Source: Burkholderiaceae bacterium (GTDB lineage: Bacteria; Pseudomonadota; Gammaproteobacteria; Burkholderiales; Burkholderiaceae_E). Taken from it: DNA of 64,000 bases. Below are positions 1 through 62,861 of this stretch, in pieces. Within the stretch, counting starts at the first letter, position 1; each line of letters starts with the position of its first letter. The translations under genes and the position numbers were made by a program. The notes under the pieces are model-generated. The model did not search any database. It worked only from the letters and a program-made list of their open reading frames with translations, and had not been told where the DNA came from. The stretch lies in NCBI GenBank assembly GCA_024637395.1, contig JAGXFG010000009.1, positions 1,157 to 65,156 of the forward strand, given 5' to 3'.

Positions 1-69
1 CCAAGCTGAAGACGCCAACCCGACGCTTGCCGCTAGGACCGCCAATTTCACAAAGACTTTGATGCCCAT
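1..69 (-). CDS. 5' end of a secreted-protein gene running off the left edge (only the signal peptide is visible)
   Basis: The reverse strand reads GGAG-N8-ATG, then MGIKVFVKLAVLAASVGLASSAW..., a typical Sec signal peptide. It is absent from the ORF track because the window edge truncates it. A competing + strand open frame (2..208) has no convincing start or RBS. Confidence 0.35.
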   Translation of the reverse strand, partial: MGIKVFVKLAVLAASVGLASSAW

Positions 70-460
70 GACACTTACTCCATTTAGTCGTTCAATCCAG
101 TCGCCACAGTATAAGCATCAACTGTGCCAGGACAACCATACCATTGAAATCAAACAGATTTTTCCAGGCTGTCGTTGCGACCAGGAAGATTTTGGTCGCT
201 GCCCGTAAGAATCGTCGGCACTAGCATTAGTGAACTTTGGCACAAACTAACCGTGGATCGACCTCTTTTAATCCCGCCCGGCGCGAGCAGTTCCTGTCCG
301 CGCCTGCTGAACGTACCAGTTGCCGTTGTTGAGGCGCACCGATACGCCCCGCGATCGAAGCGGCGGCCCTAGGGCCGAAACGCCTCGATCGTGCCTGCCG
401 AGGAGTCGTCTTTGCACTAAGCATCGGGTAGGGGACCGGGTCACCCCGGTCGCCCTCCCA

Positions 461-494
461 CACCACCGTACGTGCGGTTCCGCATACGGCGGTT
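461..494 (-). ncRNA. Group II intron domain V (catalytic hairpin)
   Basis: The reverse strand reads AACCGCCGUAUGCGGAACCGCACGUACGGUGGUG. The lower helix CCGCCGUAU pairs with GUACGGUGG, including G-U pairs. The upper helix is GCG/CGC with a GAAC loop, and there is a 2-nt AC bulge on the 3' strand. The catalytic triad is CGC, as in class C introns. Confidence 0.8.
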
Positions 495-703
495 CATGAT
501 TGAATCTGCAAGCGCCGGTGAGTATTCACCAGCGACACCAGCCCCATGTGGTCGAAGAACGACTTCTGGAACGCGTGGTTCATGTGGCTGGCCCCGGCAT
601 TCCACCAGGCACCGCGCCCGTTGGTCGCCGAGCGCCACGCGCGCTCCTCGGCCAATCCTCGCTTCATCAGCAGTCTAGGCCGCGGCGCAAACCCGGCCGG
701 CAT
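494..703 (-). pseudogene. C-terminal remnant of the group II intron-encoded protein (maturase/RT tail)
   Basis: The track ORF 494..703 translates as ...RLLMKRGLAEERAWRSATNGRGAWWNAGASHMNHAFQKSFFDHMGLVSLVN.... This follows the pattern typical of bacterial intron-encoded-protein C-termini (RG-x-AW-x-A-x-GRG-W-x-S/A-x-AL/F-x-F-x-GL-x-SL). The stop TGA abuts domain V. No RT domains lie upstream. Confidence 0.65.
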
Positions 704-911
704 GGCATACGGCGGCGAACTGCAGATTCCGGTAATCCTGCGGGAGGCAGGTTACTCCAGTCGTCCTTCCACCACCACGCTTTGGCTGCGCATTCCTCGA
801 GAATCGCAGACGCGCAGAACACCCTTGCCGGTCCGCTAACGTTTCCCACTGCCCGGTCCGTAGTGGACTTCCGCTTCCCGGTGGGTGCTGCTCCCTGTCC
901 GGGGCGCACCC

Positions 912-938
912 AAAAAAAACGCCCCGCATCGCGGGGCG
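912..938 (-). terminator. Rho-independent terminator of the PEP-CTERM gene 959..1783
   Basis: The reverse strand reads GCGCCCCGC-GAT-GCGGGGCG followed by TTTTTTTT, beginning about 20 nt after the stop codon. Confidence 0.85.
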
Positions 939-958
939 CTTTCTATCGTGGATTCAGT

Positions 959-1783
959 TCAGCTGCCGAGGCGACGCCTACGAATCGCGGCCAAACCGAG
1001 CAACCCCAGTCCGACCAAAGCGACGGAGACTGGCTCGGGGACTTGTGTCGGAGGCAGACATTCGCCGAGATCGCCCTTCCTGTCTGAAACGCAGCTCAGG
1101 TACGACCATTCCTCGAAGCCATCGTTATTCGGGAAACCACCCGCACCAACGGGACCACCGTAGCGACTGAACAGTTGGAGATCCGTATCGAGTGCATAGC
1201 CGCTGAACAGAGCGACCGGGATCTTCAGGTACATGTCGACGCCGTTACCGCTGCCGGCCGCCAGGCTGAAATTCAGCTTGATGGAATTGCCGTCTGTAAG
1301 GCTCCAGAGTGGTGTCACACCATCCAGTTGACCAGTAGCAAAACCGGTCAGAGAGCCATCGCCCAAAAAGATGCTGATTTCGTCGACGGTGAGGAACCAC
1401 TCGGGATCGGTCTTTACTTGATTGATATCCAACCGAAAGATTGCGAACCCATCTTGTATCCCGAGCTGACCAATCGTGACCACCTGGTTATCGTTTGGTG
1501 CACTACCCACGTCATTGTCGGCGAGAATTGATCCCGTCGTGTTGTAGTGTTGATAAGTCGGGTCTTGACCGCCAGGCGAGCCCAGGAAAGAGGGGAAAAT
1601 ACCGGTACCGACCGTGCCGCTGTTGGTGTCTGTATTGCAGACGACGGCGCCATCATTGATGCTCGTACAGACCTGCGCTCCTCCCGACCCTAGGGTCGTC
1701 ATGTCGATCTCTGCGGCGCTGGCGCCGCCCGCGCCAAGCAATAAGCCCGTCGCGACTGCCAAGGTGGAAAGCGTTTTTGACAT
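959..1783 (-). CDS. PEP-CTERM sorting-domain secreted protein (exosortase substrate)
   Basis: The C-terminus is ...PTQVPEPVSVALVGLGLLGLAAIRRRRLGS, i.e. a PEP motif, a TM helix and an Arg cluster. The signal peptide is MSKTLSTLAVATGLLLGAGGASA. The start at 1783 was chosen because GGAG lies 6 nt upstream. The track ORF extends to 1825. Confidence 0.9.
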   Translation of the reverse strand: MSKTLSTLAVATGLLLGAGGASAAEIDMTTLGSGGAQVCTSINDGAVVCNTDTNSGTVGTGIFPSFLGSPGGQDPTYQHYNTTGSILADNDVGSAPNDNQVVTIGQLGIQDGFAIFRLDINQVKTDPEWFLTVDEISIFLGDGSLTGFATGQLDGVTPLWSLTDGNSIKLNFSLAAGSGNGVDMYLKIPVALFSGYALDTDLQLFSRYGGPVGAGGFPNNDGFEEWSYLSCVSDRKGDLGECLPPTQVPEPVSVALVGLGLLGLAAIRRRRLGS

Positions 1784-1836
1784 ATTCATCTCCGTCATCG
1801 TTGCCGACTGCGAATGCGCGGTCACGACTTAAGCTC

Positions 1837-1852
1837 AGCAAACTTCGGGCCA
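1837..1852 (-). promoter_or_regulatory. Sigma-54 (-24/-12) promoter for the PEP-CTERM gene
   Basis: The reverse strand reads CTGGCCCGAAGTTTGCT against the consensus YTGGCACGrNNNTTGCW. There is one mismatch and the GG-N10-GC spacing is exact. It lies about 55 nt upstream of the start codon. Confidence 0.6.
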
Positions 1853-2058
1853 GGAAACCTTTCCAGTTAGTAATCAACCACTTAACAGATTCCGTCGGCA
1901 GCGCACCAGGACATTCGTAAAATATTTCGACAGAGCTAATTTTCCAGAAAACGAGACTCCCGCATGAGTTGGACGCTGTTTCTGCGTAACGCTCGTCTTG
2001 ATTACTGCCCGCTACCGCTGATTTCCACCTGGACGTTCTTGAGCGCACCCACGCGCGC

Positions 2059-2088
2059 CATTGAAGAAACGGCGGCCCCAAGGCCGCC
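2059..2088 (-). terminator. Terminator-like hairpin with no assigned gene
   Basis: The reverse strand reads GGCGGCC-TTGG-GGCCGCC followed by GTTTCTTCAATGG. It lies in the long spacer between the N-acyl amino acid synthase gene and the PEP-CTERM gene. Confidence 0.4.
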
Positions 2089-2330
2089 GTCCCATTTGCC
2101 ACAGATTACCGCGTGCGGTTCAGACTTTACGTTGAGAATTCGCCATCTCTTAGTCAAGATCGCCAAGTCTTCCAACCGACCCAAGCTGTCGTTTCGGAGT
2201 GACTCTGGCCCCGCTCTGCCACCCGAGCGCGACGCAAACCAGTCTGCTAGGGCATAGGAGCAGCCCGCGGTAAAGCAAACCGACACTTCCGATCCGGGGT
2301 TGTCACTACGTTGACGGAGAATCCGAACTT

Positions 2331-2363
2331 CGACCCGAAAAGGAAACGGGGCCTAACGGCCCC
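2331..2363 (-). terminator. Terminator-like hairpin ending the N-acyl amino acid synthase / small-ORF transcription unit
   Basis: The reverse strand reads GGGGCC-GTTA-GGCCCC followed by GTTTCCTTTTCGGG. The stop codon of small ORF 2353..2460 sits in the loop. Confidence 0.5.
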
Positions 2364-2681
2364 GAACAGCAAGAGCGTTCCAGGCAAGCGCACTGGCGGG
2401 GGTCATCAGCCAATCGGCGTACGCACCCCCGTTGGTGTGGAATCCGCCAGCGGCGGTCATATTTGTACTGCGGCACACCGCCCCCCAAAGTTGATGTAAT
2501 CCATGCCGGCGGGCTGGTGGGGACAATTCCCGCCAGGGAAGCAGATCCAACGGGGACTCAAAGGCATGGTTTTGACGATGTTTTCGCGGCTCGAAGCCAT
2601 GCCATACCTGGATTTATGCGGTTGAATTTCCTATCCGTATCAACGGAATCGGAGAGAGGGTTTACAGGAATCCAGGGATAT

Positions 2682-3482
2682 TCATCCAAACATTTCGCGG
2701 CTATCTTTGTCCAGGTCCAATAGCCTGTGGGCAATACCCTCCTCCTCGCGTTGGGAGAAAAAATAAGGATACAAGGATTTTTCAGATGCAGGGTGGTCAC
2801 TTGACCCGCCGAATTTCTGGATCTGGTGTTCCGCATAACCAAGTTCAAGCCTTAGCAGAACCGACGGTGCGTTGACGCGCGGGTTGTTCTTTGTTTGCCC
2901 GTGCCGTTTGAAGCCCAGCATTCTTTCATAAAAACGTCGATGCCTCGGATTGACCTCGACGAACAGGTCAGTGTAATTCCGAATGTGCCAAGCGTAGATG
3001 AAAGCGACATGAAAGACCGAAGCGAGAACCAGTTTTGAATGGACGTCGGGGTCGAAGGCGAGCTTGGTGAATTCGCAAATCCTGCTGCCCCCGCTCCTGA
3101 AAATATCGATTTCGTCCTTATAGGTTTCGTCGGCCAGAATTCCTGCGGGGGAGTCGAAAGAGATGGAAATTGTTCCGATCGTCGAGTGGTTTTCCGCGGC
3201 TATCAGGGTTAGCAGGTTGGGGTTTTCCAGCGTTTGGCTGGATGTGGCGTAGCCCCTCCACGAATACATCCGGTCGACGAGCATGTTAGCGGAGTTGCGG
3301 CCTTCATCCGTGTCGGCAAGACGGATGTTGAAGGTCTTGCGGTCTACCGCAGTATTCAGGATCTCGGCGTATGCCTCTTCTCCCTCCGGGGAAGGGGGGT
3401 CCGGCTTGGTGGGGACATAATGAACCTCGGCAATGGTCTTCCCGGTTGTCGTTTTGTCCCAGTCATGGCGAATTTGTGGCAC
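2682..3482 (-). CDS. N-acyl amino acid synthase, PEP-CTERM/exosortase-associated acyltransferase family (GNAT/LuxI-like fold)
   Basis: 266 aa with ...ICEFTKLAFDPDV...VFHVAFIYAWH...LFVEVNPRHRRFYERMLGF..., the hallmark core of FeeM-type long-chain N-acyl amino acid synthases. The GTG start has GGGAG 4 nt upstream. The gene is flanked on both sides by PEP-CTERM genes. Confidence 0.8.
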   Translation of the reverse strand: MPQIRHDWDKTTTGKTIAEVHYVPTKPDPPSPEGEEAYAEILNTAVDRKTFNIRLADTDEGRNSANMLVDRMYSWRGYATSSQTLENPNLLTLIAAENHSTIGTISISFDSPAGILADETYKDEIDIFRSGGSRICEFTKLAFDPDVHSKLVLASVFHVAFIYAWHIRNYTDLFVEVNPRHRRFYERMLGFKRHGQTKNNPRVNAPSVLLRLELGYAEHQIQKFGGSSDHPASEKSLYPYFFSQREEEGIAHRLLDLDKDSREMFG

Positions 3483-3630
3483 TTTGCTCCCACTTGATGC
3501 AAAGCGATTCCTATCCTTGCCTGAACCAGGCTCGGCGCAAACAGGGCCACCACCTTTTGGCCCGTTGCGTCACATGTCCGCCGACCACAGCAACTTCAGC
3601 AAGGATCTTGCCTGCTTGATCTTGGGAACG

Positions 3631-3653
3631 GGCCCTTGGCAGAGCCAAGGGCC
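3631..3653 (-). terminator. Perfect 10-bp stem-loop after the PEP-CTERM gene 3682..4863 (no U-tract)
   Basis: GGCCCTTGGC-aga-GCCAAGGGCC lies about 30 nt downstream of the stop codon. The lack of a T-run makes an intrinsic-terminator function uncertain. Confidence 0.4.
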
Positions 3654-3681
3654 GGATCGGACTTACTTTACTGACAGGTTT

Positions 3682-4863
3682 CTACTTGGGTGAGCGGCGA
3701 CCCCGCGTCGACCAGCCCAGCCCCAGCAATCCGAGCCCCATCAGGGCAATGGTGACAGGCTCGGGAACCTGCCGAGAGGCGACCGCGCCGACGATCCCGA
3801 ACTCCTCGCCACCATTGGTGTTGCAGCCGAGCGATCCCTCACCGCCGATAGGACCGGGACCATCTGTAACGCAGCCGACATTGACGGTGAAGACGAACAG
3901 GTCCGAGGAGTCGAACAGATTCAAATCCATGCCCGGCGCAAAGGCCAGAAAGTCCGGCTTGCCAGACCCCTTGTTGTGGTTAAGGCCCGAGTATTCGTCC
4001 CCATTGGCAGTGACCCCGGCACAACCGGTGCCGGTCAATATGCTGTATGGGCCAGCGGCAGTACAGGCCTCGACGCTGCCGTAAAAGTTCACCGTTCCGT
4101 AGTTGAACGTGGGGTCGGCGATGTTCAACCCACTGCCGTCGGTGCGGTCCAGGTTCCACTGCCCCAACATGGTCGTCTGGGTCTCGTCCCAGATTTGGAT
4201 CATGGCGCTGACCCACAGGGAGTCATCATTGCCCGTCTGGTTGTAGTCCGCATAGAGCACCGGAATGCTCGCCAGCGGGTCGAGGGTCTGCAGATAGGTC
4301 AGGATCTCGCCGACCGTCGAGGTGCCGCCCTGTGCGCTAGCGGGATCGCTATATGACTGCAACGGTGGGGGCGGGGTGGCATATTCGGTATAAATCTGCG
4401 TATTGCCGCCCCATACGCCGGTCCAACCGGGAAGGGTGTCGCTACTGGCCGTATCGACCGGATCCTGGAGACTCACGCCGCTGCCGTTCGGGTTCACGTT
4501 GGTCGCACCACCCGCGTTAGAGGTGAGATTGACTGCGATGGTGCCCGTTCCGACCGAGAAATCGTAAACGCCGAAGGTGGTTACCGGCAGGAAGGTGGTT
4601 TGGGTCGTGTTGCTCTGAATGGCGTTGAGCAGAGGTGCAGAATAGGACCAGTAATCATCGTACTTCAGTGCGATCGGGATGCCGTTCATCATAATGGCAG
4701 CCCGCGTCTCGCCCAACGCATCCAGGTAGGTTCCGTAGGTGGCGTAGGCGTTATTCTCCGGCGTTGGCAATTGGAAGAGAGCTGTTGTTGCAGCTCCCGC
4801 CCCTGCGGAGGCTGCAATGCAGGAAGCTCCAAGCAGTGCAGACATCAACTTCTTCATCTTCAT
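3682..4863 (-). CDS. PEP-CTERM sorting-domain secreted protein (exosortase substrate)
   Basis: The C-terminus is ...SRQVPEPVTIALMGLGLLGLGWSTRGRRSPK. The signal peptide is MKMKKLMSALLGASCIAASAGAGAA. GGGGGA lies 6 nt upstream of the ATG. Confidence 0.9.
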   Translation of the reverse strand: MKMKKLMSALLGASCIAASAGAGAATTALFQLPTPENNAYATYGTYLDALGETRAAIMMNGIPIALKYDDYWSYSAPLLNAIQSNTTQTTFLPVTTFGVYDFSVGTGTIAVNLTSNAGGATNVNPNGSGVSLQDPVDTASSDTLPGWTGVWGGNTQIYTEYATPPPPLQSYSDPASAQGGTSTVGEILTYLQTLDPLASIPVLYADYNQTGNDDSLWVSAMIQIWDETQTTMLGQWNLDRTDGSGLNIADPTFNYGTVNFYGSVEACTAAGPYSILTGTGCAGVTANGDEYSGLNHNKGSGKPDFLAFAPGMDLNLFDSSDLFVFTVNVGCVTDGPGPIGGEGSLGCNTNGGEEFGIVGAVASRQVPEPVTIALMGLGLLGLGWSTRGRRSPK

Positions 4864-4997
4864 GATTTTCCCCCTGACTGAGACGGGCCATCAAATCGCT
4901 TCGACAATTCGAGTGCGCTCTGCAAAATCTACGCATCTATCTGGAAAGTCACGCTGAGCGCTAGAACTTGCAGACTTTGGCACCGCATCTATGGGTA

Positions 4998-5013
4998 AGC
5001 AATTTTCATACCG
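4998..5013 (-). promoter_or_regulatory. Candidate sigma-54 promoter for the PEP-CTERM gene 3682..4863
   Basis: The reverse strand reads CCGGTATGAAAATTGCT. The GG-N10-GC spacing is correct and the -12 element TTGCT is intact, but the -24 element is weak (3 mismatches). It lies about 135 nt upstream of the start. Confidence 0.3.
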
Positions 5014-5158
5014 GCCGCCAGCCAAGCAGGCACAGGCCTATGATAAATAGGGAATTATTTAAGAATACTCTGGTTCGGCCGACCTCTCGGCGGCACTTGT
5101 CGAGCGCCAATGTAAAATTATTCGACACCTGGCCCCGCCTGACTGACCCTTGAGTGCT

Positions 5159-6247
5159 TCATATCCAGGATTCGCCCACTATCAGATCATCCAGGGAAAG
5201 CCGCAGCGAGCGGGACTCGGGCGGTTTTCCGGAGCCGACCCGTCCCATGAACAGCACGCACGCAGGTAGCGTCTCCCCCAGCAAGTGCTGCAGCTGGCCG
5301 GACAGGCGCCGCGCCCGGTCGTGCATGGCGGGGGTCTGGGAAAAGGCAAGCCCCTCACGGATATAGCGACCAAAAATCAGCGGGGTCATCTCCGGCTGCA
5401 GTTGCAGGCCCAGACTTGTGGCAGTGAGCCAGAAACGCTGGACCGCCCGGCCTGCGGCCACGTAATCCTCTATGGTTTCAGGTGCTTGATTGGCCAGGAT
5501 GGCAAAGTGCGCGGCACAGAACAGGCCTGGCAGGAGATCCATTTCGATCCGCGGCACCATGTGCCCGGCAAGATAAGTGTTAAAGAAATCGACACGCTGC
5601 CAACTCGCCATGACCCAGCGCATCAATTTGAGGGTCATCTTATCCAACCCCAAGGCCTGATCGGGTACCTTGTCCTCGCTGTATCGGGTGTTCCACTCGA
5701 TGACGTCACGGTGAACGGGATAGGCTTCGGGCAGGGTAAGCCTGAGCTTGGCATTGTCGAACATCAGTTTGGCCAACTGCCAGCGTTGTGGCCCGCCCTC
5801 GAACCAGCGCACGGTGTAACATTTTCCGCCAGCGCCTTGCAAAGCCTGTTTCTGCGATGCGGTGAGGGGGATGGTACGCATCGGCCGACGCTGCACTGAA
5901 CGCTGCCGGATATGGGGCAGCAGGGGATCGGACGTCACGGCACTGTCCGGGATCAAGTCCACAAGATAGTCGGGGTGAGGATCCGGAGAACCGGGGCGTC
6001 GCCTGAATTCCGCCCGCAGGCCATGCGGGCTGGCGGCTATAGCCAAGGTTTCCAGCAGCGCGCCCAAGGAAGTTTGGCTAGGGTGGCCGTCGAGGTCATA
6101 GACGCAATGGTCGCGGGTATCGAAGGCGTGGACGATCAAATGGCGTTCGTCGATGATCTCAAAGCGCCAGGGCTGGGTGTTGTCGCCGGAGGGCGCCCAG
6201 CGGGCGAGTTCGAGAATATCGGCGATGGGCTGGGGAATCGGCTGCAT
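5159..6247 (-). CDS. Two-lobed nitroreductase-family protein (Acg/SagB-like architecture)
   Basis: The N-terminus ADILELARWAPSGDNTQPWRFEI is the classic nitroreductase motif. At 362 aa it is about twice the size of a single nitroreductase domain. Its start codon directly follows the ThiF stop (TAGATG). Confidence 0.85.
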   Translation of the reverse strand: MQPIPQPIADILELARWAPSGDNTQPWRFEIIDERHLIVHAFDTRDHCVYDLDGHPSQTSLGALLETLAIAASPHGLRAEFRRRPGSPDPHPDYLVDLIPDSAVTSDPLLPHIRQRSVQRRPMRTIPLTASQKQALQGAGGKCYTVRWFEGGPQRWQLAKLMFDNAKLRLTLPEAYPVHRDVIEWNTRYSEDKVPDQALGLDKMTLKLMRWVMASWQRVDFFNTYLAGHMVPRIEMDLLPGLFCAAHFAILANQAPETIEDYVAAGRAVQRFWLTATSLGLQLQPEMTPLIFGRYIREGLAFSQTPAMHDRARRLSGQLQHLLGETLPACVLFMGRVGSGKPPESRSLRLSLDDLIVGESWI

Positions 6248-7129
6248 CTATAGTCCGAGTTTGCGTTTGGCGAGGGCAATGGCGAGACGCTGCAAGGGGT
6301 TGCGGTTGCCGCCGGGTCGCCAGGTCAGCGCCAGCTTGTTGCGGTAGGCATCGAAGTGATAGCCCTTGGGGGCCGTCCGAACCGGGCCGCGGCCGAGGAG
6401 AATTTTCAGGGCTTCGGTTGCCGCCACGCCAGCGCAAAGCTGGCAGGCCATGGTGGTGGACGGGCCCTTGCGATTGGCCAGATCAACTGCGGAGGGGTCG
6501 GCCAAGTAGCCCATTTGCAGGCGGGCAGGCGCAAGCCCCATGAGGAAACGCATGGGCATTTCCTCCTCGGGGCCGTCGTCCAGGCGAAAATAATCACTAA
6601 AACTCATGCCGCCCGGCAAAAAATTGAGCACCGCCGCGCCCATTCCAAGAGGGGCTGCGGTGACGGCGGGGATACCTTTTGCCGCACATGCGGCAAAGAC
6701 CTGCTGGCGAGCCTGAAAAGCGAAGAAATCCAGGCCATCGACGTAGAGGTCCACACCATCCAGAAAGGCATCCAGGTTGTCGCTTGTCACTCCGTCGGCA
6801 AATTCCTTGATTTCAAGCTCGGGATTGATGTCGCGCGCCTGGCGGGTCATGACATCCATCTTGCCCAAGCCCAAGGTGCTGACCATCGCTCCGGCCTGAC
6901 GATTGAAATTCGTCAGATCGAAGGTATCGAACTCGGCCAGATGAAATTTGCCTACGCCCAGCCGACAAAGCGTTAGCAGGTGTATCCCGCCCACGCCACC
7001 CAGCCCGGCAATCGCCACCCGTTTGTGGCGCAACTGTTGCTGCTCCGGCTGGGTCAGCCAGCCGAAGTTGCGGGAAAAAGCTTCATCATAGGTAAAGGAT
7101 TGCATATGATCAAACCATATTGAATGCAT
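6248..7129 (-). CDS. ThiF/MoeB/HesA-family E1-like adenylyltransferase
   Basis: KRVAIAGLGGVGGIHLL (a Rossmann GxGxxG) is followed by NFNRQ and a DGLD motif. No CxxC zinc pairs are present. The start may instead be the second Met at 7105 (MQSFTYDEAFSRNFGW). Confidence 0.85.
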   Translation of the reverse strand: MHSIWFDHMQSFTYDEAFSRNFGWLTQPEQQQLRHKRVAIAGLGGVGGIHLLTLCRLGVGKFHLAEFDTFDLTNFNRQAGAMVSTLGLGKMDVMTRQARDINPELEIKEFADGVTSDNLDAFLDGVDLYVDGLDFFAFQARQQVFAACAAKGIPAVTAAPLGMGAAVLNFLPGGMSFSDYFRLDDGPEEEMPMRFLMGLAPARLQMGYLADPSAVDLANRKGPSTTMACQLCAGVAATEALKILLGRGPVRTAPKGYHFDAYRNKLALTWRPGGNRNPLQRLAIALAKRKLGL

Positions 7130-7575
7130 TCGTTTCGCGCGAGATCTAGAAGGATTCAGCGCATTTTCTTAAACGGCCAAGTACGAATCACGCGTTGGAG
7201 TCCGTGCTGGGCAGCGCCAGAGAACTTGCTATTTGTCAATAAGCCGGCAACATCACCCGCTTTGGCGTGGGTTTCAGTCTTATCTAAACTGTATTGCCAA
7301 CCGCATGAGCGGCCTTAATCAGGGTATCGAGCTAGATGGATAGATTGCCGGGGCGAAGAACAAAGCCGGAATTTTCTTGCTTGAAGGCATGCGAGACTGT
7401 ACCTTTTGTAGTACTTTTAAAATAAAATTATTAATAAGCTTGTACATCGGCAAAGTCTGCTCGGTGTGACGGGCGTAGTCAACCTTTGCACCGGATTGAC
7501 TTGCCTGCCATCATGTTCTGGACACCCCGCTTAAGCCTGTGATTCAGCGCCACCCTTTCTTAAACTAGGCTTGGC

Positions 7576-7722
7576 ATGACGGACGCCACCCACTAACGAA
7601 TTTGCCCCCTGTGCGAAGCCTGCTGTGGGCTGGAGATCAAGGTACAGGACGCTGTTGTCACCAGCGTCAAGGGGGACGCCCAAGACGTCCTCATCCAAGG
7701 CCCCCCCATGGGGTGGCGCTAG
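7576..7722 (+). pseudogene. N-terminal stub of a molybdopterin-dependent oxidoreductase gene (in-frame stop, then truncated)
   Basis: It translates as MTDATH*RICPLCEACCGLEIKVQDAVVTSVKGDAQDV.... This matches the Fe-S N-terminus pattern TH-Y-R-x-C-x-LCEA-x-CGL...V-x-S-I/V-x-GD-x-x-D of this family. TAA sits where Tyr is expected. Similarity ends about 40 codons in, and the rest of the gene is absent. Confidence 0.6.
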
Positions 7723-7729
7723 CGGCGCC

Positions 7730-8499
<770 letters not shown>

Positions 8500-8503
<4 letters not shown>

Positions 8504-49745: not shown

Positions 49746-52700
49746 CTACAGCAGCACCCGCTCGATGCCGCCATCATTGGCGCGCCGGACGTAATCGCCC
49801 AGCCAGTCCGCGCCGAGCAGGTTCCTGGCGAGTTCCACCACGATATAGTCGGCCTCGGCACCGATGTCGTCGTTGTAGCGCGACAGTCCCTGCAGGCACG
49901 AGGGGCACGAGGTCAGCACCTTGACCGGTCCGTCGAATGGCTGGCCGTCGGCCAGGGCGCGCTCGCGCACCGCGGCCGTGTCACGCCGCAGTTCCTCCTC
50001 CTTGCGAAATCGCACCTGGGTGGCCACGTCGGGCCGGGCAACCCCCAGTGTTCCGGACTCGCCGCAGCAGCGGTCGGTCCGCTCGACCCTGCCATTGATG
50101 CCGTCGTTGATCAACTCGTTGACCACCTTCAGCGGGGCGTAGTGCTTGATCGGGCTGTGGCAGGGGTCGTGGTAGACGTAGCGCGTGCCGGTTACCTCGC
50201 CGAGCTTGACCCCCCGCTCCATCAGGAATTCGTGAATGTCCACGATCCGGCTGCCGGGGAAGATCTTCTCGAATTCGTAGCCCTGGAGCTGATCCTGGCA
50301 GGTGCCGCAGGACACGACCACGGTCTTGATGTCGAGGTAGTTGAGGGTATTGGCGACGCGGTGGAACAGCACCCGATTGTCGGTGATCAGCTTCTCGGCC
50401 TTGTCGAACTGCCCCGAGCCGCGCTGCGGATAGCCACAACAAAGGTAGCCGGGGGGCAGCACGGTCTGAACGCCGACTTCCCAGAGCATCGCCTGGGTCG
50501 CCAGCCCCACCTGCGAGAACAGCCGCTCGGAGCCGCAGCCCGGGAAGTAGAACACGGCTTCGGCATCGACCGTGGTGGCCTTGGGGTCGCGGATGATCGG
50601 AACGTAGCGACTGTCCTCGACGTCGAGCAACGCCCGCGCCGTCTTGCTCGGCAGCTTGGCCGGCATCTTCTTGTTGACGAAGTGAACGACCTGCTCGCGC
50701 AGCGGCGCTCGCCCGATGCTCAACGGCGGCTTGCGCGTCTGCGCGCGGCCAAACCGCGCCAGCAGCCGGCTCGCGAAGCGCTGCGCCTTGAAACCGAACC
50801 CGACCATCAGCGTGCGCGCTGCCCTGATCGTCTGCGGATCGGTGGCGTTCAACATGAACATCGCCGCGGCGCTGCCGGCGTTGAACTTCTTCTTGCCCAT
50901 CTTGCGCAGCAAGTCGCGCATGTTCATCGACACGTCGCCGAAATCGATGTCCACCGGACAGGGGTTGAGGCACTTGTGACAAATCGTGCAGTGATCGGCA
51001 ACGTCGGAGAATTCTTCCCAGTGGGCCAGCGAGACCCCGCGCCGGGTCTGCTCCTCGTAGAGGAAGGCCTCGATCAGCAGAGAGGTGGCGAGGATCTTGT
51101 CGCGGGGCGAATAGAGCAGGTTGGCGCGCGGCACGTGGGTGGCGCAAACCGGCTTGCACTTGCCGCAGCGCAGGCAGTCCGACACCGAATCGGCGATCGA
51201 GCCGAGATCCGATTGCTTGAGCAGCAGCGACTCGGCGCCCATCAGGCCGAACGACGGCGTGTAGGCGTTGCGCAGATCGCCGCCGGGCAACAGCTTGCCG
51301 CGGTTGAATCGCCCCTGGGGATCGACCCGCTCCTTGTAACCGCGAAACTCGGCCGTCTCCTCGTCGGTCAGGAACTCGAGCTTGGTGATTCCGATCCCGT
51401 GTTCGCCCGAGATCACGCCGTCGAGCGCGCGCGCCAACGCCATGATCCGCACCACCGCCGACTGGGCCTGATGGAGCATCGCGTAGTCGTCGGAGTTGAC
51501 CGGGATGTTGGTGTGCACGTTGCCGTCGCCGGCGTGCATATGCAGCGCGATGAACACCCGGCTGCGCAATACCCGCTGGTGAACGGCATCGACGGCGTCG
51601 ATCACCGGGGCAAAAGTCTGGCCGGTGAAAATCCGGGCCATCGCGGCCCGCACCTCGGTCTTCCATGACACCCTGATCGTGCGGTCCTGCAGCATGTCAA
51701 AGAGCGTCTGCCCGGCGCCAGCCGCGACGCGGGCGTCGAGTTCGGGCAGGAACGATTCGAGTCCGACCTCGACCAGCCCGGCACGCACTTCCGGCAGCGG
51801 CTGGTCAATGCTCTCGAGCAGGAATTGCCAGCGCGCCCGGATCGCCGAGTGACACTCCGCCGCTGCCAGCAGCCGCTGCGCCAGCAGCGCCTCGTCGGTC
51901 ACCGGCTGGTCGCTGTCGCCACCCTGGGGGCGGCCGAGCACCAGCGGCCCGGCCAGCAGTTCCTCGAGACCATCGAGCATCGCCAGCTTGTTGCCGATCG
52001 AGTACTCGATGTTCAGGCGCTCGATGCCATCGGTGTACTCGCCCATGCGGGGCAGCGGGATGACCACGTCCTCGTTGATCTTGAATGCATTGGTGTGGCG
52101 CGAGATCGCGGCGGTGCGCGCGCGATCCAGCCAGAACGCCTTGCGGGCCTCGGGGGAAACGGCCACGAAGCCCTCTCCCGTGCGCGCGTTGGCGATCCGG
52201 ACCACCTGCGCGGCGGCACGCGCCACGGCGTCATCGTCCTCACCGACGATGTCGCCGAACAGCACCATCTTGGGCAGACCACCGCGGCGAGATTTGGTCG
52301 TATAGCCAACCGCCCGCAGGTAGCGTTCGTCGAGATGCTCGAGTCCGGCCAGCGTCGCATTGACCGCCGGATCGTCGAGATAATCCTTGATCTCGACGAT
52401 CGAGGGCACCGCGTCCTTGGCCTGGCCGAAGAATTCCAGGCAGACCGTGCGCACCTGCGGCGGCATCCGGTGCAGGACCCAGCGGGCGGCAGTGATCAGC
52501 CCGTCGCAGCCCTCCTTCTGCACCCCGGGGAGCCCCGCCAGGAACTTGTCGGTGACGTCCTTGCCCAGGCCGGCCTTGCGAAAACGCCGCCCCTCGACCT
52601 CGAGGCGCTCGCTGCGCACCGGGTTGCCGTGCATCGTGCCGTCGGGCTGAAGTTGCGCGGGCTTGTACCACTTCAGCTCGAAACGCACCAACTCGACGTC

Positions 52701-53699
52701 GTGGATCTTGCCGCGGTTGTGTTCGAGCCGGGTGACCTCGAGCCACTGCCCCTGCGGATCGACCATCCGCCACCAGGCCAGGTTGTCGAGCGCCGTGCCC
52801 CAGAGCACGGCCTTCTTGCCGCCGGCGTTCATCGCGACGTTGCCGCCGACCGTGCAGGCGTCGGCCGAGGTCGGGTCGACCGCGAACACCAGGCCGGCCG
52901 CCTCGGCGGCCTCGGCCACCCGGCGGGTGACGACGCCGGCCTCGCTGAAGATCGTCGGCACCTGCCCCGCGACCCCGGGAAGGTCGGTCATCTCGACCGG
53001 GCCGAGCCGCTCGAGCTTCTCGAGGTTGATGACCGCCGAGCGCGGCGTCAGCGGTACGGCTCCGCCGGTATAGCCGGTGCCGCCGCCGCGCGGGATGATG
53101 GTCAGCCCGAGTTCGAAACAATCGGCCACCATCCGCCCGACCTCGCGCTCGCGATCGGGTGCCAGCACCACGAACGGGTACTCGACCCGCCAGTCGGTGG
53201 CGTCGGTGACATGGGACACTCGCGACATCGCATCGAAGCGGACGTTGTTGCGATTGGTATGGCGCAGGAAGCGGCGCTGGCTCTTGGCGCGCAACGCGCC
53301 GACGCGGCCGAAGTCGTGCTCGAAGCGCTCGGCAGCCTCCTTGGTGCTGGCCAGCAGTGCGCTGACCTTGGCGCTGCGAGCGGCCGCCTGCTCGTCAACC
53401 GAATCGCGCAGGTCGTGCTGGCGCCGCTTCTCGATCTCCGCCACCCGGTGGTGCAGCGCTTCGACCAGCAGCCGGCTGCGCTTCGGGTTCGCGAGCAGGT
53501 CGTCCTGGAGATAGGGGTTGCGCTGCACCGCCCAGATGTCGCCCAGGACCTCGTAGAGCATTCGCGCCGAACGGCCGGTGCGCCGTTCCGAACGCAACTC
53601 TTCGAGGATCGCCCAAGCGTCCTCGCCCAGCAGCCGGATAACGATCTCGCGATCGGCGAACGACGTGTAGTTATAGGGAATCTCGCGCAGACGCGGCAC
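49746..53699 (-). CDS. Giant fused oxidoreductase: N-terminal DUF3683-like region, FAD-linked oxidase (GlcD-like), and 4Fe-4S/CCG cysteine-rich domain (GlcF-like)
   Basis: 1317 aa. [20 protein letters not shown] at the N-terminus. [16 protein letters not shown] (FAD-binding PCMH motif). [11 protein letters not shown] and [12 protein letters not shown] (ferredoxin-type clusters). C-terminal CCG motifs. Confidence 0.9.
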
Positions 53700-53740
53700 G
53701 CCAACCCCTCGAAGGAAAAGAATATCTTACCGCCAGGCGT

Positions 53741-62452: not shown

Positions 62453-62489
62453 CTCCGCCAACAACAACTACCGGTGAGAAGACACAAGC

Positions 62490-62861
62490 ATGATGCGAAT
62501 TCTATTGGTGTGGGGCATCAACGCGGGCAGCCTGCTGCTGTTGCCGATGATCATGCCTGCCGTGCAGGTCGCGAGCTTCGGCACCGCGCTGGTGGTCGCC
62601 GTGGTGCTGGGGCTGCTCAACGCCGTGCTACGCCCGGTGCTGATCCTGCTCACGCTGCCGATCAACCTGCTGACACTGGGACTGTTCATCCTGGTGATCA
62701 ACGGCCTGATGTTCTGGCTGGCCGCCAACTTCCTCGAGGGCTTCACGGTCAGCAGCTTCGGCTGGGCCATTGGCGCCGCCCTGCTCTATAGCGTTATCAG
62801 CTGGGCGCTCAGCTCGCTGCTGATGCCGCGCCCGCCGCCGGTCCAGCGCAGGCGCGACTAG
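62490..62861 (+). CDS. DUF360 / phage-holin-4-like small membrane protein
   Basis: 123 aa with 3-4 TM helices. ...FGTALVVAVVLGLLNAVLRPVLILLTLPINLLTLGLF..VING. Confidence 0.8.
   Translation: MMRILLVWGINAGSLLLLPMIMPAVQVASFGTALVVAVVLGLLNAVLRPVLILLTLPINLLTLGLFILVINGLMFWLAANFLEGFTVSSFGWAIGAALLYSVISWALSSLLMPRPPPVQRRRD

Follow-up and report, generated by a model that had tools for sequence, protein, structure and literature searches.

What does a ThiF-like/nitroreductase gene pair do in the midst of genes for PEP-CTERM proteins? This question is raised by one end of a 64,000-nt stretch of DNA from Burkholderiaceae bacterium (GenBank assembly GCA_024637395.1, contig JAGXFG010000009.1, positions 1,157 to 65,156 of the forward strand), which we analysed as a whole and refer to as the window. 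Its first 7729 nt form a block in which a ThiF-family gene and a nitroreductase-family gene are followed by a PEP-CTERM gene, an N-acyl amino acid synthase (NAS) gene, and a second PEP-CTERM gene. We found that the three-enzyme combination is the published acyl-oxazolone pathway and that the enzymes are not new. We are fairly confident that the block represents an acyl-oxazolone, or N-acyl-dehydro-amino-acid, pathway joined to at least two PEP-CTERM genes, and that it is of foreign origin. A survey of related loci further revealed that the link between this cassette and PEP-CTERM, PepA-like, and PrsT genes in Betaproteobacteria is real and conserved.

The three enzymes are probably those of the acyl-oxazolone pathway

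The N-acyltransferase OxzA and the ATP-dependent ThiF-nitroreductase di-domain protein OxzB make tyrazolones and phenazolones; their sources include Pseudoalteromonas rubra, Undibacterium pigrum, and others, and expression of oxzAB of U. pigrum in E. coli yielded oxazolones (de Rond, Asay & Moore, bioRxiv 10.1101/2020.06.11.147165). The window likewise encodes an N-acyltransferase, a ThiF-type unit, and a nitroreductase-type unit, of which ATP-dependent cyclisation and oxidation would be expected. The window's ThiF protein aligned without gaps over 284 amino acids (aa) to the ThiF domain of the putative U. pigrum OxzB (68% identity), its nitroreductase and the C-terminal domain of the same fused protein shared 52% identity over 352 aa, and its synthase was 42% identical over 247 aa to the putative U. 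pigrum OxzA. In this U. pigrum locus (L047), a FeeM-like gene lies in front of a single fused ThiF-nitroreductase gene. Undibacterium pigrum DSM 19792 (L047, L076) also carries a second, split copy, and each copy has its own upstream FeeM-like gene. The window departs from OxzAB in its arrangement: OxzB is one fused protein, whereas the window has two abutting genes (the ATG of the nitroreductase gene, at 6247, directly abuts the ThiF stop codon at 6248-6250), and oxzA normally lies directly upstream of the ThiF gene, whereas the window has a paralogue 1.7 kb downstream of the pair, behind a PEP-CTERM gene.

Along its full length, the ThiF protein aligned to PRK14851, a model of ThiF-nitroreductase fusions (319 bits), and the synthase, ThiF protein, and nitroreductase each aligned to successive parts of PRK14852, a 989-residue model that combines FeeM-like, ThiF, and nitroreductase portions. 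Among NCBIfam models, the nitroreductase matched those of the Acg family (124 bits) and the Rv1355c family (109 bits) as well as PRK14851 (81 bits). The GxGxxG motif of the ThiF protein (GLGGVGG) and its acidic DGLD motif are invariant among relatives, and its nearest solved structure is the cyclodehydratase TcdA. A second possible ATG for this gene lies at 7129; homologues are 285 aa long, so we place the start at 7105 and regard the ATG at 7129 as probably unused. The synthase matched the FeeM structure 2g0b (E=9e-13). No match to TIGR03694 at E<=10 was obtained for the synthases of the window, T. denitrificans, or U. pigrum, although the presence of this model in NCBIfam release 20 is uncertain.

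A split-gene equivalent of the pathway is TyzABC of M. tuberculosis (Rv2336, Rv2338c, and Rv2337c), in which TyzA is an acyltransferase, TyzB is a ThiF homologue that performs ATP-dependent cyclisation, and TyzC is an oxidase of the nitroreductase superfamily that performs O2-dependent desaturation (Grigg et al. 2023, PMC10404671). According to Kleetz et al., a ThiF gene of this cluster as a rule adjoins such an oxidase gene or is fused to it, with an acyltransferase gene as a neighbour, and TrzAS is also among the published examples of the pathway (PMC12856293). Like the window, the Tyz system has separate genes for the cyclase and for a monomeric, two-lobed Acg-like oxidase together with an NAS gene, and the window nitroreductase matches the Acg/Rv1355c models. 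The likeness, judged through family models, is nevertheless distant (76-109 bits to the Rv1355c family model), and the Tyz genes belong to an actinobacterial host with no PEP-CTERM system and have cysK, cysE, and mmpL9 as neighbours. An E1/ThiF-like partner and a nitroreductase-fold flavin mononucleotide (FMN) dehydrogenase also act together in McbBCD-type microcin machinery, which yields an oxidised five-membered heterocycle. The window differs from that machinery in having neither YcaO nor a precursor peptide; its ThiF-like protein is the presumed catalyst, and the substrate would be a small N-acyl amino acid.

The block is compositionally foreign and resembles a Sulfuricella locus

The G+C content (GC) of positions 1-7729 is 57.7%, compared with 66.7% for positions 7730-64000, and 1-kb windows outside the block have a standard deviation of 2.0% and a minimum of 60.9%. 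Third-position GC (GC3) is 0.64-0.75 in the block genes versus 0.81-0.90 in the 25 highest-GC3 long open reading frames (ORFs) outside the block. By ORF listing and profile searches, positions 959-7105 contain five intact genes; these and the partial gene at 1-69 are all encoded on the minus strand.

Where did this block come from? Its ThiF-nitroreductase part is 90.5% identical over 1754 nt to a Sulfuricella metagenome-assembled genome, and the ThiF protein is 91% identical to that of Sulfuricella versus 64-71% to those of Burkholderiales-type loci. The synthase is 76% identical at the protein level to the upstream one of the two tandem NAS genes of Sulfuricella, and the surrounding region (2651-3628) is 84% identical in nucleotide sequence to the same NAS region. 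GC of the Sulfuricella locus (56.5%) is close to that of the block. On the flank, ProS is nearest to Zeimonas and Quisquiliibacterium (78-81%), both of which we take to be Burkholderiales. Composition thus differs between block and flanks, and the phylogenetic signal of the cargo is incongruent with that of the flank, as in a genomic island. The 90% identity of its ThiF-nitroreductase part to Sulfuricella DNA, in a host that belongs to the Burkholderiales, points to horizontal transfer, and the intron remnant and truncated gene at the borders (see below) also fit a foreign origin. Most likely, a Burkholderiales host took up this block of at least 7.7 kb from a Sulfuricella-like lineage, and rearrangement occurred on the way. 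Relative to Sulfuricella, the ThiF-adjacent synthase is gone, a paralogous synthase lies downstream of the gene for the 393-aa PEP-CTERM protein, and the PEP-CTERM genes show only a distant relationship. Sulfuricella-type loci (L001/L005, 8239-9972; L085, 554-2444) have two tandem FeeM-like genes upstream of ThiF, and the window retains the orthologue of the distal one only.

The rearranged layout was reproduced in short contigs from other samples. One (L090) is 94% identical over 7353-4763 and also has the start of the 393-aa gene downstream of the nitroreductase gene, while another (L091) is 96% identical over 7239-5596. A third (L092) encodes an identical synthase protein, preceded by a 301-residue gene end that we take to be that of the 393-aa gene.

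At the right border, blastn homology to all 80 loci of the survey described below ends at 7117, i.e., 12 nt upstream of the ThiF start, so the usual upstream copy of the synthase gene is absent here. The rest of the window had no blastn match to any of the fetched loci. The independent contig L090 matches 7106-7353 at 93% identity. Beyond it lies a remnant of a molybdopterin oxidoreductase gene that is cut off at the end of livF; minus-strand ORFs at 7531-7709 had no Pfam match, and the oxidoreductase fragment was seen only on the plus strand. GC is 0.68-0.70 from 7700 onward, and the change in GC at the junction is graded. These data place the right end of the block between 7117 and 7729, while its left end lies beyond the window. 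We found no tRNA that could serve as an integration site and saw no integrase, and the direct or inverted repeats flanking the block were short, chance-level matches only. The first genes of the flank are of the liv type, and LivG and LivM, the neighbours of livF, were confirmed with Pfam.

Near the other end, the domain V/VI model of group II introns (RF00029) scored 48.5 bits, above its gathering score of 40, at positions 423-494 (minus strand). The 5' end of the intron, GUGCG, lies at 909-905, directly after the terminator hairpin and T-run of the gene for the 288-aa PEP-CTERM protein. Placement after a terminator is typical of terminator-targeting (class C) group II introns. We read a 69-aa ORF at 494-703 as the C-terminal tail of the intron maturase. 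Pfam detected no reverse transcriptase or maturase domain in the ORFs of the intron region; because of this and because the element is only ~485 nt long in total, we regard it as a non-functional remnant.

These results bear on what had been proposed for this block by a first inspection of the letters and ORFs (hereafter, the sequence-only reading). That reading had described a co-directional island of low GC, which the strand assignments, the GC difference, and the GC and GC3 values below those of the flank all uphold. Its estimate by eye of 45-55% GC in several lines of the block against about 70% in the core reflected a real difference but exaggerated the contrast. The retroelement remnant that it saw at 423-909 is the intron described above, and the AT-rich patch that it noted at the right edge is present. 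The oxidoreductase fragment that it called decapitated is also real, but it lies on the plus strand and is truncated, not decapitated, because its head survives and its body is missing.

Is the transferred cassette still of use to its host? The block could be decaying cargo, whose own synthase gene and promoter were lost in transfer and which is no longer expressed or useful. Such decay would fit the end of homology 12 nt upstream of the ThiF start, the AT-rich and unique upstream region, and the remnants (the intron and the truncated gene) around the block. Every ORF of the block is, however, intact. Furthermore, the ratio of nonsynonymous to synonymous substitution rates (dN/dS) is 0.12-0.17 for ThiF against the independent contigs and 0.28 for the nitroreductase against L090. 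The contigs share the rearranged layout, and the values indicate that both genes are under purifying selection. The synthase paralogue has also been kept, and is identical in another sample. We therefore consider decay unlikely.

The alternative to a transferred island is an assembly artefact, in which a Sulfuricella-like piece was misjoined to a Burkholderiales contig during metagenome assembly and the host has no island at all. The window comes from a 74-kb contig, the block sits at one end of the window and is 90% identical to Sulfuricella DNA, and the contig may be chimeric because no independent contig spans 7353-7729. Yet the block and the Sulfuricella locus are not copies of each other: the block has another gene order, lacks the upstream synthase gene, and has different PEP-CTERM genes. 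Its rearranged layout also recurs in other samples, on contigs of 94-96% identity. Nor is there a repeat at the junction that could mislead an assembler; instead, the junction shows a gene remnant and a graded change in GC. A misjoin thus appears decidedly unlikely.

The cassette is linked to PEP-CTERM, PepA-like, and PrsT genes in Betaproteobacteria

We used the ThiF alignment to scan one genome per species, which gave 322 confirmed matches, and fetched the best 80 (64-91% identity) with 10-kb flanks. Nearly all of these loci are annotated as Betaproteobacteria. They were annotated by six-frame ORF calling, BLASTP with the window proteins, and a pattern for the PEP-CTERM tail. A nitroreductase gene adjoined or was fused to the ThiF gene in 72 of the 80 loci (10 fused), and a FeeM-like gene lay directly upstream of ThiF on the same strand in 42 of the 77 loci with room for it. 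Of the 62 loci with room, 32 had a PEP-CTERM ORF whose start lay no more than 1.5 kb beyond the pair (on the same strand in 24). The background density of PEP-CTERM ORFs elsewhere in the same loci was 0.025 per kb, from which ~2.4 would be expected instead of 32. All six PEP-CTERM tails that were checked by Pfam were true domains.

Which PEP-CTERM proteins are these? Twenty-four of the adjacent ones form a single family, whose one scored member, from T. denitrificans, passed the NCBI model of the flocculation protein PepA (85.4 bits; cut-off, 80). A hidden Markov model (HMM) of this PepA-like family, built with the sorting signal removed, retrieved 33 ORFs from the loci, and 25 of these lie directly after the pair. 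The window's 393-aa protein falls, with the neighbour from Sulfuricella, into a second family, of six members. PrsT was encoded within 10 kb in 22 of the 80 loci, and PrsK, PrsR, or EpsB2 in some. More broadly, the cassette has the XrtA/PEP-CTERM regulatory locus as its setting. In Sulfuricella, the gene order is PrsK, EpsB2, protease, transglycosylase, PrsT, NAS, NAS, ThiF, nitroreductase, PEP-CTERM; in T. denitrificans, it is NAS, ThiF, nitroreductase, PepA, methyltransferase, PrsT, PrsT, PrsR. The latter resembles the pepA-prsT floc-formation locus of Aquincola tertiaricarbonis and Zoogloea resiniphila, where RpoN-dependent PEP-CTERM genes adjoin prsT (PMC9850573), in that the cassette is followed by a protein that passes the PepA model, two PrsT genes, and PrsR. 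The window differs from this locus, since its PEP-CTERM proteins do not reach the cut-off of the PepA model and its scanned ORFs include no prs genes.

A related combination is known outside the Proteobacteria. The stieleriacine cluster of the planctomycete Stieleria maiorica Mal15 contains NAS, methyltransferase, ThiF-family, PEP-CTERM, and nitroreductase genes; its products are N-acyl dehydrotyrosines, and the authors proposed a link between the compounds and exopolysaccharide and biofilm (PMC7293339, PMC12479983). By its published description, this cluster brings together NAS, ThiF, nitroreductase, and PEP-CTERM genes as the window does; it differs in its host, its methyltransferase gene, and its up to four NAS genes. 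Producers of kyonggic and thalassotalic acids likewise have clusters of NAS, ThiF, and nitroreductase genes, and their tailoring enzymes have been compared to TyzB and TyzC (PMC7293339, PMC12479983). A link between NAS and the PEP-CTERM/exosortase system was reported in 2011 (Craig, Cherry & Brady, J Bacteriol 193:5707; as cited). For the synthase of the window, no match to TIGR03694 was obtained (see above).

Could oxazolone and PEP-CTERM genes simply share a variable region of the chromosome and be functionally unrelated? The adjoining PEP-CTERM proteins do come from several unrelated families, the window's PEP-CTERM genes have sigma-54-like sites of their own (see below), and the oxazolone products were unchanged when neighbouring genes were added (de Rond et al.). 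Against such a coincidence stand the excess of adjacency over expectation, the near confinement of the PepA-like family in these loci to the position after the pair, the frequency of PrsT within 10 kb, the recurrence of the co-location in a planctomycete, and the independent report of an NAS-exosortase link by Craig et al. (as cited). We consider coincidence improbable.

The survey also uncovered variants of the cassette. In five loci (L036, L060, L062, L072, and L081), the ThiF protein shares 65-69% identity with that of the window, and the nitroreductase encoded after it shares only 24-29% with its counterpart there, which suggests that an alternative oxidase partner was recruited. Four loci of Nitrosospira/Nitrosovibrio (L019, L022, L023, and L025) have a rearranged layout, in which the ThiF-nitroreductase pair has no adjoining synthase gene and PEP-CTERM genes lie 6-9 kb downstream of the pair; a FeeM-like gene was found 9-10 kb downstream on the opposite strand in L019, L023, and L025, and none was detected in L022.

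The window's PEP-CTERM proteins and their upstream sites

Both complete PEP-CTERM proteins of the window have the features recognised by PF07589 and TIGR02595 (i.e., a PEP motif, a hydrophobic helix, and a basic tail); with TIGR02595 (cut-off, 16), the 393-aa protein scored 19.2 bits and the 288-aa protein 20.7 bits. The 393-aa protein clusters with PEP-CTERM proteins encoded directly after the pair in Sulfuricella (L005, L010, L012, and L038) and also with a protein from L070, where its gene is the second of the PEP-CTERM type behind the pair. The 288-aa gene probably has its real start near 1783-1798 and not at the GTG listed in Table 1. The left-edge gene, of which 23 codons lie inside the window, encodes a signal-peptide protein that might also belong to the PEP-CTERM class. 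Pfam scanning of ~40 ORFs in the rest of the window found no exosortase, PrsK, PrsR, or PrsT, in agreement with the sequence-only reading, so the window's PEP-CTERM proteins must depend on genes elsewhere.

Two sites upstream of these genes match the sigma-54 consensus TGGCAC-N5-TTGCW (Table 1). They were identified as consensus matches only, and they fit the reported RpoN dependence of pepA. No such site with two or fewer mismatches was found upstream of the 393-aa gene. A further one-mismatch match, TGGCGCAACTGTTGCT, falls at 7026-7041 on the plus strand, within and antisense to the ThiF gene, and is probably due to chance. Two direct repeats also lie upstream of the PEP-CTERM and left-edge genes. 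The copies of a 26-nt repeat at 218-243 and 4958-4983 (73% identical; minus-strand GTGCCAAAGT...) precede the left-edge gene and the 393-aa gene by ~100-150 nt and could be sites for a shared regulator or could reflect chance. The copies of a 44-nt repeat at 334-377 and 2043-2086 (70% identical), which contains the palindrome GGCCCTAGGGCC, lie upstream of the left-edge gene and the 288-aa gene. The 856 bp between the NAS gene and the 288-aa gene (1826-2681) have no convincing ORF and no homology to the fetched loci.

Table 1 Features of the low-GC block and its right junction, in order of position.
Feature	Positions	Strand	Evidence or remarks
Signal-peptide protein, first 23 codons, cut by window edge	1-69	minus	Translation MGIKVFVKLAVLAASVGLASSAW...
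Sigma-54-type promoter-like site TGGCACAGTTGATGCT	114-129	minus	45 nt upstream of left-edge gene; one mismatch, canonical GG/GC spacing
Internally deleted group II intron remnant, ~485 nt	423-909	minus	Rfam RF00029 and 5' GUGCG
G+C-rich hairpin then T-run, intrinsic terminator of 288-aa gene	920-938	minus	gcgccccgcgatgcggggcg then tttttttt
PEP-CTERM protein, 288 aa from GTG	959-1825	minus	PF07589, 23.8 bits (cut-off 20.7)
Sigma-54-type promoter-like site TGGCCCGAAGTTTGCT	1837-1852	minus	Upstream of 288-aa gene; one mismatch
FeeM/OxzA/TyzA-type NAS, 266 aa	2682-3482	minus	PF21926, E=1.5e-49
PEP-CTERM protein, 393 aa	3682-4863	minus	PF07589, 27.5 bits (cut-off 20.7)
Two-lobed nitroreductase-superfamily flavin oxidase (TyzC / OxzB C-domain type), 362 aa	5159-6247	minus	NCBIfam and alignment
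ThiF-family ATP-dependent cyclase (TyzB / OxzB N-domain type), 285 aa	6248-7105	minus	NF006077, 465 bits (cut-off 266)
Non-coding AT-rich right border	7106-7575		GC 22% at 7400-7449
N-terminal remnant of molybdopterin oxidoreductase (Fe4S4 motif), in-frame stop	7576-7722	plus	PF04879, 23.9 bits (cut-off 22.7), E=4e-5
livF-type ATP-binding-cassette ATPase, first gene of high-GC host flank	7730-8503	minus	ORF and translation

Two genes of the host flank were noted in passing. One (49749-53726, minus strand) encodes a 1326-aa protein with DUF3683, FAD-oxidase, 4Fe-4S, CCG, and DUF3400 domains and is unrelated to the block; the other (62478-62858, plus strand) encodes a small protein of the Phage_holin_4_2 family with four transmembrane segments and lies amid housekeeping genes.

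A proposed pathway and the points that weigh against it

Drawing on the characterised relatives, we propose the following scheme for the block. The FeeM-type synthase would N-acylate an amino acid, probably an aromatic one, with an acyl group from acyl-CoA or acyl-carrier protein. The nitroreductase-family flavoenzyme would then desaturate the acylated amino acid with O2, and the ThiF-like enzyme would adenylate its carboxylate and carry out closure of the oxazolone ring. The predicted product is a labile yellow azlactone that would hydrolyse over hours to an N-acyl dehydro-amino acid. The PEP-CTERM proteins would be exported and processed by an exosortase encoded elsewhere. Substrate and product are here assigned by analogy, and the genomic context suggests a role for the product in surface or floc biology that depends on PEP-CTERM proteins and exosortase.

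Several points weigh against reading the block as a transferred acyl-oxazolone pathway that is tied to PEP-CTERM genes. We infer from species and architecture that L047 is the gene pair expressed by de Rond et al., and the text of the paper is silent on this point. The window's synthase is the Sulfuricella-type paralogue, which is 41-55% identical to the ThiF-adjacent OxzA type, and a PEP-CTERM gene separates it from the pair. The gene that directly precedes or overlaps ThiF in relatives has been lost here, and we found no convincing promoter upstream of ThiF. Membership of the window's PEP-CTERM proteins in PepA had to be rejected, as the 393-aa and 288-aa proteins scored 32.8 and 26.8 bits, respectively, with the PepA model NF033554 (cut-off, 80), and neither protein matched the HMM of the PepA-family body. 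Finally, the junction between the block and the host flank (7353-7729) has no support from an independent contig. Among the matches listed for LivF in a metagenome scan, the best was 71% identical, and exact-sequence look-ups with the ThiF, nitroreductase, and LivF sequences matched no record.

What, then, do the enzymes act on? Most likely, the chemistry acts on a small N-acyl amino acid and not on exosortase substrates. The rival proposal that this is new E1-like/redox chemistry on exosortase substrates (e.g., that the nitroreductase modifies a PEP-CTERM protein whose C-terminus ThiF adenylates) can draw on the facts that ThiF/E1 enzymes mostly target the C-termini of proteins or peptides (PDB matches include MccB and PaaA), that PEP-CTERM genes adjoin the pair far above chance, and that Aquincola PepA has unexplained extra bands suggesting modification, but it is highly improbable given that the 68% and 52% identities are to a family acting on free N-acyl tyrosine, that natural fusions with an N-acyl amino acid synthase domain exist (PRK14852), that the enzymes have no signal peptide by our own reading of their translations while PEP-CTERM proteins are exported, and that many loci have the three enzymes without an adjoining PEP-CTERM gene.

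Implications for the oxazolone and exosortase systems

The sequence-only reading had taken a ThiF/nitroreductase pair at the head of a module of this kind to be undescribed and had suggested an additional ATP-dependent activation and redox chemistry tied to exosortase-dependent biology. The claim of novelty does not hold: OxzAB, TyzABC, and TrzAS are published, the Stieleria cluster has a PEP-CTERM gene too, and the fusion models PRK14851 and PRK14852 exist. The proposed chemistry was correct in kind, although its substrate is most likely the small molecule and not an exosortase substrate. The pair is indeed tied to NAS and PEP-CTERM genes, and the contrary possibility, that they are never co-located except here, is at odds with the 32 of 62 loci in which a PEP-CTERM gene follows the pair.

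The systematic association of the cassette in Betaproteobacteria with PepA-like genes and prsT, an extension of known links, may so far have gone unremarked. The words exosortase and PEP-CTERM do not occur in the main text of the OxzAB preprint (bioRxiv 10.1101/2020.06.11.147165), and the main text and supplement of the Aquincola pepA paper make no mention of ThiF, nitroreductase, or acyl genes (PMC9850573). The stieleriacine, kyonggic acid, and thalassotalic acid papers report no systematic survey of the cassette with PepA or PrsT (PMC7293339, PMC12479983). In a full-text literature search, we found no paper that combines exosortase or PEP-CTERM with oxazolone, OxzB, TyzB, or ThiF plus nitroreductase.

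The window itself adds one rearranged, probably transferred copy of a known pathway. Its main interest lies in drawing attention to a cassette that, in many Betaproteobacteria, is directly upstream of PepA-like, sigma-54-type PEP-CTERM genes and near prsT, prsK, and prsR. The papers that discovered bacterial oxazolones state that the role of these compounds is unknown, and we found no explanation in the literature consulted of why NAS genes lie beside exosortase systems; the pairing described here makes both questions testable. We tentatively suggest, as a possibility that is still doubtful, that the XrtA/PEP-CTERM flocculation system in Betaproteobacteria, and perhaps beyond (as in the Stieleria cluster), has the acyl-oxazolone pathway as its dedicated accessory. 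Its product might be a small molecule that is sensed by or feeds PrsK/PrsR, or a reactive azlactone that attaches covalently, as an acyl group, to the adjoining PEP-CTERM protein or to the matrix. If this were true, oxazolones and the NAS-exosortase link of 2011 would both gain a biological role through either action of the product.

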